NCBI GenBank assembly: GCA_964610875.1
Contig: CAZSWP010000009.1
Coordinates: 33,058-97,057, forward strand
DNA length: 64,000 bases
Source of the DNA: an uncultured archaeon
GTDB lineage: Archaea > Asgardarchaeota > Thorarchaeia > Thorarchaeales > Thorarchaeaceae
Reading direction: 5' to 3'
Below the pieces are notes generated by a model. That model had not been told where the DNA came from, made no database searches, and saw nothing but the letters and a program-made list of their open reading frames with translations. Below are positions 4,489 to 40,634 of the stretch, piece after piece; the first letter of the stretch is position 1; the number at the start of each line of letters is the position of its first letter. The position numbers and the translations under genes are program-made.

Positions 4489-5070
4489 TTATCCAGAACG
4501 ACTTGAAAAGTCCTTCATTCGCTCATCAAATTCGTCAGGTTCCTTTTCATCTTCCTTCTCAATACGTTCATCTTGATATTGGAAGATTACCGATTCACCT
4601 ACAACAGCTGAAACAATCTTTCTGAGTTGGTCCTTAGAGTATTTTATTCTGGATCTATCTTCTGGCCGAAGCATTACTATGCTTTCTTTGAATCCATTTG
4701 GCAAATAGAGACTATTAACGCCCACTTCTACCGCGGGGCGGATAAGATATCTGACGATAGTCCTAAGGTTTGCTGGACCTTTTACAATCATGACATCCCC
4801 ATATTCGTCCTTTAAGGTTTCAAGAAGCTCTTCATCGTCCTCGAGTAATTCTTTGCTCTTTTTCTTGACAACAAGCACAAGTAAGTTGTCCAATTTCAGG
4901 GCTCTTACTAAATTCAAGTCATTAAGGTTGGGGTGCTCCTTTGATAGTTCTAATATCCACTTACAAAATTCGATATCAAAATCTGTGATTTCACCTCTAT
5001 CCAATCGCTCTTGACAATTTGGACAGAGCATATCGGACTCCAAATCAAAGACACATACAGGTAGGCGCAT
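4489..5070 (-). CDS. Archaeal NusA-like KH-domain protein with N-terminal Zn-binding motif
   Basis: N-terminus LPVCVFDLESDMLCPNCQERL..GEITDFD is typical of the archaeal NusA paralog family; lies next to alba. Confidence 0.7.
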   Translation of the reverse strand: MRLPVCVFDLESDMLCPNCQERLDRGEITDFDIEFCKWILELSKEHPNLNDLNLVRALKLDNLLVLVVKKKSKELLEDDEELLETLKDEYGDVMIVKGPANLRTIVRYLIRPAVEVGVNSLYLPNGFKESIVMLRPEDRSRIKYSKDQLRKIVSAVVGESVIFQYQDERIEKEDEKEPDEFDERMKDFSSRSG

Positions 5071-7185: not shown

Positions 7186-7292
7186 TGGTGGGCCGGACGA
7201 GATTCGAACTCGCGATATTGGCGATAATCAAGGGAAGTCCCTGATATATCCGCCGTGTGAAGGCGGCGTCATAGCCGCTAGACCACCGGCCC
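7186..7292 (-). tRNA. tRNA-Val(CAC) with a 31-nt intron in the variable region (7218-7248); CCA encoded
   Basis: Minus strand: GGGCCGG acceptor stem, D arm, CCGCC-TTCACAC-GGCGG anticodon arm, insert, GCGAG-TTCGAAT-CTCGT T arm, CCGGCCC-A-CCA. Confidence 0.93.
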
Positions 7293-37525: not shown

Positions 37526-37565
37526 CTCTCTGTTGCTTCTTGAAATTCTCAATGGTGGCCACAAA

Positions 37566-37940
37566 ATGTCGTCGGTTGTAGAAGAGGCATGGGGTTTTCT
37601 CTATTCAATGAATCCAAAGATACAAGCATTTGGTGTCTGTAAAGATACTGAGATTATTTGGCAAACTAGTAATTGGAATCTAGTGAATGATGTAGATGTA
37701 ATTATCAACGCCCCCGCAAAAGATGCTGCATCTATCAAGGTAGATGGAACTGAGTATTTTAGAGTGGCCTCTTCTGCTGAAACATTTGCTGGAACTGATA
37801 AGAAACAGGATGGGCATATTCTCATCGCTAAAGTTTCCAATGATGTTTGGATTATAGGATGGGCTCAAGCGAATGCAGATCCTGAGCTCGCCTTAGTTGA
37901 TTTGACATATACTGCAAGTCGTCTTGATGGACAATTATAG
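37566..37940 (+). CDS. Profilin-like paralog 2
   Basis: Colinear with paralog 1: IQAFGV, IIWQTSNWNL, DGHILIAK, WIIGWA, A(D/A)P...VD. Confidence 0.7.
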   Translation: MSSVVEEAWGFLYSMNPKIQAFGVCKDTEIIWQTSNWNLVNDVDVIINAPAKDAASIKVDGTEYFRVASSAETFAGTDKKQDGHILIAKVSNDVWIIGWAQANADPELALVDLTYTASRLDGQL

Positions 37941-38350: not shown

Positions 38351-39130
38351 CTATGTATCAGGGAAAATCAGTTTCGTTATTTGTTTGTGCAAATCAACAT
38401 ACTCGTCGTTTCTGATTGCATGAATATGTATTAGAAACTCGTACATATCCAGTACTTCTTTGTCAGCGATATCCCCTTTGATTTTAGCAGCTACTTTTGA
38501 TCTACCATCATATTGCATCATGAATATCTTATATCGCAAGTCTTCCAGCATTTTTTGTTGTTCTTCAGTGAGGTCTAAATCAAATACTTTCATCATTCGC
38601 TCTGTGTATTTTGATAATTTCTTGCGCATGTGTTTCTCATCATGCATCAGCATTCCGGTAGTCAACACAAATCCCTTTGCTGTGCGTCTGTAATAGTCCG
38701 TTGTTCTTTTCCCAGTAGTTATTGTTCCAAATTTGATAATAAAACCAGCATCAATTAGTTTCGGCAGATGATGATATACTTGATTTTTAGTGATATCTTC
38801 GATATCTTCATGCACTCCAGATTTTTTCACAATCTCTACCACTGAGAGTGCATAACGAGTAACATCGCGTTGACGGATAATTGTGTCACCAGTCGCCTCA
38901 TCGGTTGTCTTTGTTGTCTTTGTGTCAGGGACACCTCTTTTGAGCACAGTAATGATAGCATAACGTACAGGATCGTCTAATGTTTCTGCGCGTTCTTCAT
39001 CCCGCACAAAAATAATTTCATCTTGAGGTTTCTTTCCCTCTTCAGTTATTTCGAATTTTTTGTCATCCTTTTCTTCCTCCTCTATCTGGAAGGTATCCGT
39101 TATCTCGTCATTCATACTTGATTTCACCAT
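38351..39130 (-). CDS. ArsR-like winged-helix transcriptional regulator
   Basis: LDDPVRYAIITVL, KNQVYHHLPKLIDAGFI, YYRRTAKGF. Confidence 0.8.
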   Translation of the reverse strand: MVKSSMNDEITDTFQIEEEEKDDKKFEITEEGKKPQDEIIFVRDEERAETLDDPVRYAIITVLKRGVPDTKTTKTTDEATGDTIIRQRDVTRYALSVVEIVKKSGVHEDIEDITKNQVYHHLPKLIDAGFIIKFGTITTGKRTTDYYRRTAKGFVLTTGMLMHDEKHMRKKLSKYTERMMKVFDLDLTEEQQKMLEDLRYKIFMMQYDGRSKVAAKIKGDIADKEVLDMYEFLIHIHAIRNDEYVDLHKQITKLIFPDT

Positions 39131-39221
39131 GCTCGAATGTAATTATTTCGTCTTCTCTTGATATCCTTAACACATTTTGGTTATTAAAGCCTTTTTATTT
39201 ACACACCAATTTACATAATTA

Positions 39222-39283
39222 GTAATAACTACAATGTTTTTTATTACAAATGGTTTTACATACAAACCTTTATATATAAAGGT
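39222..39283. promoter_or_regulatory. Divergent promoter region with palindromic TATA element and inverted repeat
   Basis: Perfect 18-bp palindrome ACCTTTATATATAAAGGT (39266-39283); inverted repeat GTAATAA-N12-TTATTAC (39222-39247). Confidence 0.6.
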
Positions 39284-39319
39284 GTATATCATATAAATAC
39301 AATAACTCGGTGAATAACA

Positions 39320-39427
39320 ATGTCTATTGAAAAGAATGCCCGAAAGTTCGATGAGAAGATGAACAAGTCCATTGCTCAGTTCCCGTCAACTGATGCAATT
39401 GCCTATAGCTACAAATACAGGAGGTAA
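39320..39427 (+). CDS. 35-aa micropeptide 1
   Basis: GGTGA RBS, ATG start; MSIEKNARKFDEKMNKSIAQFPSTDAIAYSYKYRR. Confidence 0.65.
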   Translation: MSIEKNARKFDEKMNKSIAQFPSTDAIAYSYKYRR

Positions 39428-39432
39428 ATAAT

Positions 39433-39525
39433 CTGGCACTAGCAAAACAGGTCAAGAAGAGCAACAAACAAGCTCCAAAGAAAATCTCTACTGACGCCAT
39501 TAGTTTTCAGTATCTCTACAGGTAG
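39433..39525 (+). CDS. 30-aa micropeptide 2 (probable CTG start), homologous to micropeptide 1
   Basis: GGAGGT RBS 7 nt before CTG; (M)ALAKQVKKSNKQAPKKISTDAISFQYLYR. Confidence 0.55.
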   Translation: MALAKQVKKSNKQAPKKISTDAISFQYLYR

Positions 39526-39531
39526 ATTACA

Positions 39532-39651
39532 ATGACAAATGAACAAACCGTTATTGATACTGACCTGAACAGCATAAGGGACATGGAACGTGCGAAACCC
39601 TCCAATAATCAAGTAACTTTGAAAGAAATACTCCTCTGGGAAGCAACCTAG
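39532..39651 (+). CDS. 39-aa micropeptide 3
   Basis: AGGT RBS, ATG start; MTNEQTVIDTDLNSIRDMERAKPSNNQVTLKEILLWEAT. Confidence 0.45.
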   Translation: MTNEQTVIDTDLNSIRDMERAKPSNNQVTLKEILLWEAT

Positions 39652-39665
39652 AGGAGGACTTTTTT
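39631..39665 (+). terminator. Hairpin plus T-tract ending the micropeptide operon
   Basis: CTCCTCTGGG-AAGCAA-CCTAGAGGAG followed by GACTTTTTT. Confidence 0.55.
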
Positions 39666-39680
39666 ATTCAATATTCATAT

Positions 39681-40490
39681 CTATTTTTTGAGAATCAATT
39701 GGTAAAAGGTTTCTCCCATAACATACGAGATTTCGATATCTCTCGCCGTATCAGGAATCTGTTCCAATGGTGGTCTATAGGCAAAGAGTGTATTTTGCTC
39801 AATGATTGCTTTCCCCCTATCTGTATTTCTCAGTTTGGGCGATAGTCCTTCATCAATTATTATTACAATACCTCCCTTTCTAGTCACACGTAGCATCTCT
39901 TCCATTGCCTTGGTGATATCTGAAAACGTGTTTATGCCACCGGAATGTAAGACAACATCGAAATAATTTCCAGTGTATGGTAAATTGAACACACTTGCTC
40001 TAATTAATCCCGCCGGAATGTTGGATTTCATCATCTTTTCTCTTGCTACTGCCAACATTCCCTCTGAAACATCAAGGCCGTGAATTTCTATCCTTTCAAG
40101 TCCATCTTTGAGATATTTTTTGAGCGCAACGACATTGGCCCCTGTACCAATACTAACCTCCAGCATTCTTACATTACCTTCATGAGGAATCATAACACCA
40201 ATTTGTTCCCGTTCTCTCATGATATCGATCCCAAGGAAATCATTGTACTGTAAAACGAGTTCATCATATCTTGGTGCCATCTCATCATATTCAGTGACCC
40301 ATTTCTGATCCTCTTTTATTAGAGGGGGATGTAACAGTCTTGGAATCCCTGTGATGACATCCCATTGATGTCCTTTATCGCAACATAGTGATGCTTCTTC
40401 TATCTCTGTGGTTTCCAAGCGAACATCAGTGAGTTTCAGGTTTCTCTGACAGATTGGACACCTGATGGGTTTGAAAAAATCCCTCTTCAT
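39681..40490 (-). CDS. Class I SAM methyltransferase with N-terminal Trm112-like Zn module
   Basis: IRCPICQ...CCDKGH..GIPRL, LEVSIGTG, GLDVSEGML, FDVV; start placed at ATG 40490. Confidence 0.85.
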   Translation of the reverse strand: MKRDFFKPIRCPICQRNLKLTDVRLETTEIEEASLCCDKGHQWDVITGIPRLLHPPLIKEDQKWVTEYDEMAPRYDELVLQYNDFLGIDIMREREQIGVMIPHEGNVRMLEVSIGTGANVVALKKYLKDGLERIEIHGLDVSEGMLAVAREKMMKSNIPAGLIRASVFNLPYTGNYFDVVLHSGGINTFSDITKAMEEMLRVTRKGGIVIIIDEGLSPKLRNTDRGKAIIEQNTLFAYRPPLEQIPDTARDIEISYVMGETFYQLILKK

Positions 40491-40634
40491 TTTGAACAAT
40501 CTCAAAATTCCATGGTCTGACTTTCTAGGTATAAGTATACTTATGGAAGCACTATTGATTATAATGCAATATCTAAAACAAATCAAAAAACTAGGTGATA
40601 AAGGAAATTTGAAGAAATCGATTATGAGATGATT

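Follow-up and report, generated by a model that had tools for sequence, protein, structure and literature searches.

A family of translated-looking micro-proteins encoded by coupled, multi-copy three-gene operons in one Thorarchaeota family

A 64,000-nucleotide (nt) stretch of DNA from an uncultured archaeon of the Thorarchaeaceae (GenBank assembly GCA_964610875.1, contig CAZSWP010000009.1, positions 33,058 to 97,057 of the forward strand), hereafter called the window, carries three very short open reading frames (micro-ORFs) at positions 39320-39651 of its plus strand. We find that these micro-ORFs, termed P1, P2 and P3, represent a new family of translated-looking micro-proteins that is encoded by a coupled three-cistron operon, is restricted to one Thorarchaeota family, and exists there in multiple, homogenised copies. 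The feature lies far beyond what chance would produce, because it is kept at more than 100 loci of relatives. Coordinates given without a contig name refer to the whole window, and the names C3, C8, C17, C47 and C57 denote contigs of the 3.75-Mb source genome (G000).

Conservation and coding status of the micro-ORFs

Patterns of substitution in the conserved tails indicate that P1, P2 and P3 are protein-coding genes and not a conserved RNA. Among differing codon pairs, the synonymous share is 42% in frame for P1 (6-8% in the shifted frames), 26% in frame for P2, and 48% in frame for P3 (2-11% in the shifted frames). For the three ORFs together this amounts to 26-48% in frame against 2-11% in shifted frames, which is a 3-25-fold excess, and it is the third codon positions that vary most. 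ORF boundaries and Shine-Dalgarno motifs are maintained at more than 60 unique loci, GGTGA or GGAGGT is located 5-8 nt ahead of the start codon in most of the 17 P1-type ORFs listed, and P1 of the source genome scores 55 bits against the P1/P2 profile. At the end of P1, the sequence (A/C)GG AGG T is retained wherever a P2 gene comes next. Where no P2 follows, arginine is still encoded at this place, as AGA, and therefore the residues themselves are under selection. An Rfam scan returned only two sub-threshold matches at chance level and no family at threshold.

A brief earlier note on this DNA, prepared from the letters and a list of ORFs, had pointed out that the residues S-T-D-A-I are shared by P1 and P2 and are specified by different codons, and had proposed selection at the protein level. 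The codons were quoted correctly, and the proposal is borne out by the in-frame synonymous excess and by the conservation of ORF order, stops and Shine-Dalgarno motifs. The same frames are found conserved in relatives. A comparison anchored on the regulator gene that diverges from the operon, using 19 orthologous loci fetched from related genomes, found P1-type ORFs adjoining the regulator orthologue at 16 loci, with the full P1-P2-P3 set at ten of them; in the remaining three genomes, no peptide ORFs lie beside the regulator. Within the source genome, a six-frame scan places the strict motif STDAI.[YF].Y.YR at two sites only, which are P1 and P2. Two metagenome runs from a single study, probably the source samples, contain contigs that match the segment 39150-39635 without a single difference, including the CTG codon discussed below.

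Operon architecture and translational coupling

Reading of the sequence and of the ORF listing over positions 39130-39680 gives the order TATA box, P1, P2, P3 and hairpin with T-tract (Table 1). These elements lie precisely where the earlier note had placed a TATA element, three ORFs of 35, 30 and 39 amino acids (aa), a motif resembling a ribosome-binding site (RBS) for each ORF, and a hairpin plus T-tract. At every junction, a Shine-Dalgarno motif is embedded in the end of the preceding ORF and the spacer measures 4-7 nt (5 nt between P1 and P2 and 6 nt between P2 and P3 in the window). As judged from the sequence, this is the layout of classic translational coupling.

Table 1. Elements of the micro-protein operon and the divergent regulator gene in the window
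Feature	Position	Strand	Remarks
Divergent 259-aa winged-helix regulator, candidate repressor	38351-39130	-	putative role; sub-threshold HTH_20 and PadR matches
Operator-like palindrome GGTTTT-N5-CAAACC	39252-39268		abuts the TATA box on its upstream side; from the alignment of 16 orthologous promoters
TATA box TTTATATA	39269-39276	+	within the perfect 18-nt palindrome ACCTTTATATATAAAGGT (39266-39283); read from the sequence
Shine-Dalgarno motif GGTGA of P1	39309-39313	+	6 nt ahead of the ATG
P1, 35 aa, basic, C-terminus STDAIAYSYKYRR	39320-39427	+	ATG at 39320; TAA ends at 39427
Shine-Dalgarno motif AGGAGGT of P2	39419-39425	+	two Arg codons and first stop base of P1
P2, 30 aa, basic paralogue of P1, ends STDAISFQYLYR	39433-39525	+	CTG at 39433; TAG ends at 39525
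AGG TAG, final codon and stop of P2	39520-39525	+	Shine-Dalgarno-like motif of P3 (AGGT, 39520-39523)
P3, 39 aa, acidic, ends KEILLWEAT	39532-39651	+	ATG at 39532; TAG ends at 39651
Terminator	39631-39665	+	10-bp hairpin (39631-39656) overlapping the last P3 codons, then TTTTTT (39660-39665)

Downstream of a stop at 39406, the P2 frame of the window has no ATG, GTG or TTG codon. The earlier suggestion that P2 starts at CTG gains weight from relatives in which the same start recurs. P2 orthologues begin with ATG-GCN-CTN-GCN-AAR, and our scan counted 49 ATG, four CTG and two TTG starts, to which the CTG of the window is additional. The other four CTG starts belong to four species in a different genus, and all five CTG-start P2 ORFs are intact with the core S-T-x-A-(I/V). 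Given that these five ORFs have stayed intact and carry the core motif, initiation or re-initiation of P2 at CTG is probably functional.

The P2-P3 junction is conserved as TAC AGG TAG ATY RCA ATG at the main-type loci, where TAG is the stop in 47 of the 50 junctions into P3 and the spacer is 6 or 0 nt in 42 of 50. These counts raised the idea of programmed read-through of TAG. However, the paralogous operons described below have TAA, TGA or TAG stops, 4-6-nt spacers and mixed frames, and the idea was down-weighted for this reason. Because the paralogous operons employ all three stops and mixed frames, read-through does not appear to be a requirement of the whole family, and we retain it as a low-probability extra. 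Insertion of pyrrolysine at the TAG of P2 was considered and rejected, given that there is no PylS match and no tRNA with a CUA anticodon (ARAGORN, intron-aware), and that TAG ends 34% of the long ORFs.

Three public proteins (P0009, P0027 and P0032) of 70-90 aa resemble P2-P3 fusions, with glutamine exactly where relatives have TAG and, in one of the three, at the P3 stop as well. All three come from ENA contigs of 641-1609 bp, and in every full-length genomic match the P2 and P3 parts are separated by one or more stops. On these grounds, the apparent fusions are most likely artefacts of gene calling with TAG read as glutamine. Calls of this kind on short contigs may introduce false fusions into large protein collections.

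Distribution and database matches

We searched with one profile for P1/P2 and another for P3. Of the 85 genomes that represent one Thorarchaeota family, 81 contain P1/P2 matches and 57 contain P3 matches, and neither profile has a match in the 315 genomes from elsewhere in the phylum. Between one and 13 P1/P2-type matches are present per genome. When the motif was expressed as a degenerate DNA pattern and searched in 185,579 species genomes (GTDB) and in viral contigs, 63 genome records were matched, most of which are metagenome-assembled genomes (MAGs) from Candidatus Thorarchaeota or from archaea whose label stops at a higher rank; SMTZ1-45, AB_25, OWC2 and TEKIR are among them. About 14 of the 63 records are bacterial, a number near the approximately 17 chance matches that we estimate for this pattern; the viral contigs gave no match.

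P1 and P3 of the window have no entry in a collection of about 15 billion predicted proteins, and only 42 matches were found among 1.84 billion representative proteins. The latter are 29-49 aa long, except for some calls extended at the N-terminus, a single repeat protein that we judged to be spurious, and the three apparent fusions. The only name given by public sources to proteins of the family is 'hypothetical protein', and a search of 8.4 million full-text papers with the terms tried found no description of these peptides. Scans of P1-P3 yielded nothing in Pfam at E<=0.1 and no match in NCBIfam or PHROGs at E<=1, with one homologue showing a weak PHROG match (E 0.09). Profile searches of PDB sequences at E<=10 and a Foldseek search with the P1 model were likewise without a match. 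With protein-level selection and no Pfam, NCBIfam, PHROG or PDB match, the earlier description of an undescribed peptide family stands.

Paralogous operons and concerted evolution

Besides the main locus, the source genome contains two complete operons (C3:30049-30391 and C47:10061-10409) and a lone P1-like gene (C8:33586-33702). Their neighbours, which include genes for PolX, an EamA transporter, a GNAT protein and unknown proteins, are related neither to one another nor to the regulator. The paralogous operons share a promoter different from that of the main locus, in which a GTCAC-N5-GTGAC-type palindrome (a half-site direct repeat in the source genome) is followed by a TATA box and a Shine-Dalgarno motif. 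The operator core TCAC-N5-GTGA (GTCACAAATTGTGAC in a relative) was noted in the units at C3:30049-30473, C47:10061-10491 and C8:33504-33702 and at loci L088-L097 of relatives. This core is similar to the glycolytic motif of Thermococcales, to which TrmB-family regulators bind, and we offer the likeness as a lead only.

In one relative, four units of approximately 410 nt occupy unrelated sites and are 93-97.5% identical, and their homology begins at the operator and stops at the T-tract. In the paralogous units, too, a T-tract comes after the stop codon of the final ORF. Some sites, among them the one beside PolX, keep their position across five genera. A tree of the units nevertheless groups the copies according to genome or genus rather than position, and the PolX-adjacent orthologues do not come together. 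Because the sites are conserved in position yet the copies group by genome or genus, the data agree with old duplications that gene conversion has homogenised and not with transposition. A mobile-element origin of the 410-nt units was also considered and set aside, since no terminal inverted repeats or target duplications are evident in the alignment and the sites are conserved across genera. Within-operon expansion was observed as well, with three tandem P1/P2-type ORFs in L007 (G006:C6) and in L104 and L105 (G364); two of the tandem ORFs in L007 start at TTG and P3 is kept downstream, and L104 and L105 are without P3.

Codon usage in the peptide ORFs of the source-genome operons fits high expression. 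From samples of 43-56 informative codons each, the share of G/C-ending two-fold codons is 0.44-0.63 and the GC content of third codon positions (GC3) is 0.45-0.50, compared with genome means of 0.36 and 0.345, respectively, and with 0.70 and 0.51 for EF-1α. Ribosomal proteins L2 and L3 and the thermosome give 0.43-0.46.

Features of the encoded peptides

The family alignment identifies P1 and P2 as paralogues. Both start with M-A-L-A-K-N-T-R-N, continue with a variable Lys/Arg-rich middle, and end with (S/T)-T-x-A-(I/L/V)-x-(Y/F/H)-(A/S)-(Y/F)-x-Y-R-R. In this motif, the first Ala does not vary and position i+4 is occupied by another small residue, which is Ala or Ser with rare exceptions. The P1/P2 peptides have a mean length of 32 aa, a mean isoelectric point of 10.3, a mean net charge of about +5 and a mean grand average of hydropathy (GRAVY) of -0.8, and they are thus hydrophilic. 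P3 proteins are also hydrophilic, are mildly acidic on average (mean net charge about -2), and are conserved only at their end, T-x-E-E-V-L-x-(W/L)-E-A-T.

The earlier note had interpreted the C-terminal motif as an alternating-aromatic β-strand for docking. In contrast, an AlphaFold2 model of P1 built with 30 homologues places helices at residues 2-20 and 24-33, the second of which covers the motif with a predicted local distance difference test (pLDDT) score of about 81, and the best-conserved small residues fall at i and i+4. These features do not support the β-strand reading, with the proviso that structure models of peptides are weak evidence.

Regulator, promoter and gene neighbourhood

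The divergent regulator of 259 aa gives sub-threshold HTH_20 and PadR matches at residues 98-153 (Pfam). The earlier label of an ArsR-like regulator thus has no match above threshold behind it. Orthologues of this protein are present in 23 of 24 family genomes and almost nowhere outside. Among the 16 orthologous promoters of the main locus, GGTTTG-N5-CAAACC abuts the TATA box on the upstream side in most, and the AAACC-TTTATATA block is kept. A second copy of the palindrome is located between the TATA box and the Shine-Dalgarno motif in most relatives, and the window has the first copy only. Palindromes that flank a TATA box in this manner constitute a typical archaeal repressor layout, and the adjacent winged-helix protein is the obvious candidate to repress the operon. 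Searches for the operator across the source genome found nothing convincing beyond the operons.

Two other sites were noted in these searches. On C17, an operator and TATA box similar to the operon type are located near 4627 (minus strand), with a gene start at 4535 (minus strand). The gene encodes a 421-aa protein of GGS-x-KV-x-G repeats that appears bactofilin-like by eye, and it may belong to the same regulon. One extra GGTTTG-N5-CAAACC site is present on C3.

The main locus is part of a block that is collinear in the family and consists of genes for a profilin-like protein, an AsnC-like protein, the regulator, the peptides, a Trm112-methyltransferase fusion and an LPG-synthase-like protein. 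Because the whole block is collinear, the adjacency of regulator and peptides says little about a functional link. The fusion gene (39681-40586, minus strand) is convergent with the operon and joins an archaeal Trm112-like zinc ribbon at residues 33-87, which matches NCBIfam NF038101 below its cut-off, to a UbiE/MenG-type class I S-adenosylmethionine (SAM) methyltransferase; it adjoins the peptide operon in most relatives. The profilin-like ORF (37533-37937, plus strand) has no Pfam profilin match at E<=0.1 and gives a weak DUF316 match, and each of the 19 relatives has it beside the regulator (E 1e-26 to 1e-39). Elsewhere in the window, ARAGORN in intron mode calls a tRNA-SeC(tca) with a 31-nt intron at 7186-7292 (minus strand; C9:40243-40349), and a second, intron-less tRNA-SeC is located at C12:21809-21899 of the source genome.

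Proposed function and alternative explanations

We tentatively favour the view that the operon supplies abundant, stoichiometric micro-proteins whose C-terminal amphipathic helices associate or dock and whose basic segments bind a polyanionic partner, with P3 as an accessory modulator. We regard this as a possible function and would not yet call it a probable one. According to this proposal, three translated micro-proteins come from a free-standing transcription unit of about 400 nt, which would be driven by a strong promoter with a B recognition element (BRE) and TATA box flanked by palindromic operators, and ended by the oligo-T tract. Translational coupling would yield roughly equimolar P1, P2 and P3, and it would permit the CTG start of P2 in some lineages. 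Each peptide would comprise a flexible charged segment and then a short N-capped amphipathic helix, with P1 possibly forming a helical hairpin. The conserved helices would then serve self- or hetero-association or docking, and the basic parts would bind a polyanion such as nucleic acid, the ribosome or an acidic protein; modulation would be the task of P3. High abundance on induction is suggested because the copies are multiple and homogenised and their codon usage is like that of EF-1α.

Several results weigh against this proposal. The searches of Pfam, NCBIfam, PHROGs, PDB and Foldseek revealed no homology to any nucleic-acid-binding family, and no partner was found. No RNA run carrying the stretch is listed, and the codon-bias samples are small. 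An AlphaFold2 model of the natural in-frame P1-P2-P3 read-through (17 sequences, stops as Gln) reached a pLDDT of 58 and a predicted template modelling (pTM) score of 0.25, with three helices that do not pack against one another, and therefore assembly is unsupported by modelling. Furthermore, P3 is absent from some operons and others consist of one to three P1-type genes alone; an obligate heterotrimer is therefore unlikely. A variant of the proposal, to which we assign a rather low probability, is that the operons form a lineage-specific system of two basic peptides with Tyr-bearing helices and one acidic partner, which would be an abundant cell component of a kind not seen before (for example, a chromatin-, RNA- or ribosome-associated factor), with up to about six gene-converted copies and expression at the level of translation factors, where CTG initiation and possibly low-level TAG read-through that fuses P2 and P3 would add further products.

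The peptides could alternatively be precursors of a ribosomally made natural product or of a peptide-derived cofactor, with the invariant Tyr-rich C-terminus as the core to be cross-linked or excised, the conserved N-terminus as recognition leader and the enzymes encoded elsewhere. We judge this to be unlikely, even though such a role would suit genes that are short and multi-copy and whose products have a conserved N-terminus and an aromatic C-terminal motif that does not vary, and even though multi-copy precursors encoded away from their enzyme (prochlorosins) and Tyr-bearing cofactor precursors (PqqA and MftA) exist. No gene for a radical-SAM, YcaO, P450 or ATP-grasp protein, a protease or a transporter recurs at approximately 80 loci of the main type or at the 23 paralogous loci. 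A clustering of neighbours took in 87 loci, mostly main-type, and the 23 paralogous ones, and it covered the genes adjoining the operons. It returned the regulator, the methyltransferase and unrelated housekeeping genes, and no maturation enzyme or recognition protein beside the peptide genes. The statement in the earlier note that no modifying enzyme is co-transcribed consequently holds both in the window and at the 23 paralogous loci. The sole conserved enzyme neighbour is the convergent Trm112-methyltransferase fusion, which sits inside the collinear block, and two basic peptides plus one unrelated acidic peptide with coupled translation would be an unusual layout for precursors.

The earlier note had put the peptides forward as possible ligands of the adjacent regulator. 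We consider it improbable that they act inside the cell as signals for, or ligands of, this divergent winged-helix protein, in a feedback loop analogous to Gram-positive regulator/peptide pairs. The divergent arrangement, the shared promoter region with its palindromes and the confinement of regulator and peptides to the same family are compatible with such a loop, and the expected linkage was recovered in part, in that the two are adjacent in 16 of 19 genomes. This adjacency carries little weight within a collinear block, however, and three of the 19 genomes have the regulator without adjacent peptides. The paralogous operons have unrelated neighbours and a different operator and are not located beside regulator paralogues; in the source genome, the regulator paralogue (C57) resides on a contig separate from every operon found. 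In addition, the peptides are hydrophilic, with no hydrophobic N-terminal stretch that could act as an export signal, and the regulator shows only a winged helix (sub-threshold) and no TPR domain (Pfam), unlike what an RRNPP-like system would require.

Even less credible is an addiction or defence-type cassette in which toxic basic peptides would be neutralised by the acidic P3 and autoregulated via the palindromic operator. In its favour, the units are compact, dispersed and multi-copy, their number varies, their operators are palindromic and their ORFs are tightly coupled in translation, and P1/P2 and P3 have opposite charges. Nevertheless, the copies are found at positionally conserved chromosomal sites across genera and in none of the viral contigs, they are homogenised and not diversified, P1-type genes exist without P3, and the peptides are hydrophilic, in contrast to membrane-active small toxins. 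The explanation to which we give the least credence is action in cis, either as leader or arrest peptides whose conserved C-termini would stall ribosomes and so govern translation further downstream, or with the transcript being chiefly a regulatory RNA. Conservation is indeed concentrated in the last 9-13 codons ahead of each stop, and the P2-P3 stop-start junction is extremely conserved. Yet the hairpin and T-tract terminator come right after P3 and the next gene is convergent, the paralogous units stop at a T-tract, no Rfam family is matched at threshold, and the N-termini are conserved too.

Comparison with known systems

Tandem micro-ORF operons are known in kind. The phenol-soluble modulin alpha operon of Staphylococcus aureus comprises tandem micro-ORFs of approximately 20-40 aa with their own ribosome-binding sites, was long missed by annotation, and has a regulator-controlled promoter. 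The unit described here is similar in being short and stand-alone and in containing several tandem micro-ORFs, each with a ribosome-binding site. However, phenol-soluble modulins are hydrophobic, amphipathic, exported and lytic, whereas the present peptides are archaeal and hydrophilic (GRAVY -0.8) and include an acidic third member, and no sequence similarity exists between the two sets. Leaderless multi-peptide bacteriocins such as aureocin A70 and garvicin KS are cationic peptides of 30-35 aa whose three or four genes lie in tandem, and they share with our operon the tandem arrangement of genes for small cationic peptides without leader sequences. Unlike P1-P3, these are hydrophobic Trp-rich peptides accompanied by transporter and immunity genes, and no such neighbour is present at any locus examined here.

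The prochlorosins, PqqA and MftA are comparable in that they are short multi-copy genes with a Tyr-bearing conserved C-terminal segment, some copies being far from enzymes; the operons reported here differ in having no linked maturation enzyme, two conserved ends with a variable middle, and a fixed trio with coupled translation. Multi-copy, homogenised genes for abundant small basic proteins are exemplified by the duplicated Sul7d genes of Sulfolobus and by the archaeal histone paralogues. The peptides of the present family are likewise small and basic, with several near-identical copies and codon usage of the high-expression type, but they lack homology to Sul7d or histones, are half their size or less, and are made from a polycistronic unit with an acidic partner, and nucleic-acid binding is putative in their case. 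Overall, the operon differs from its precedents by host domain, by chemistry (hydrophilic, basic plus acidic), by having no export or immunity genes, and by multi-copy concerted evolution.

Among known prokaryotes, the Asgard archaea are those most closely related to eukaryotes. Most of their lineage-specific genes have yet to be explored, and annotation routinely overlooks ORFs of 30-40 aa. The family described here is strongly conserved, family-restricted and multi-copy, its motif is usable as a marker of this Thorarchaeota family, and its members are small enough for chemical synthesis or cell-free expression. The locus also bears on archaeal translation, in that its Shine-Dalgarno motifs are embedded in the preceding stop and a CTG start is found in at least five species with intact ORFs.

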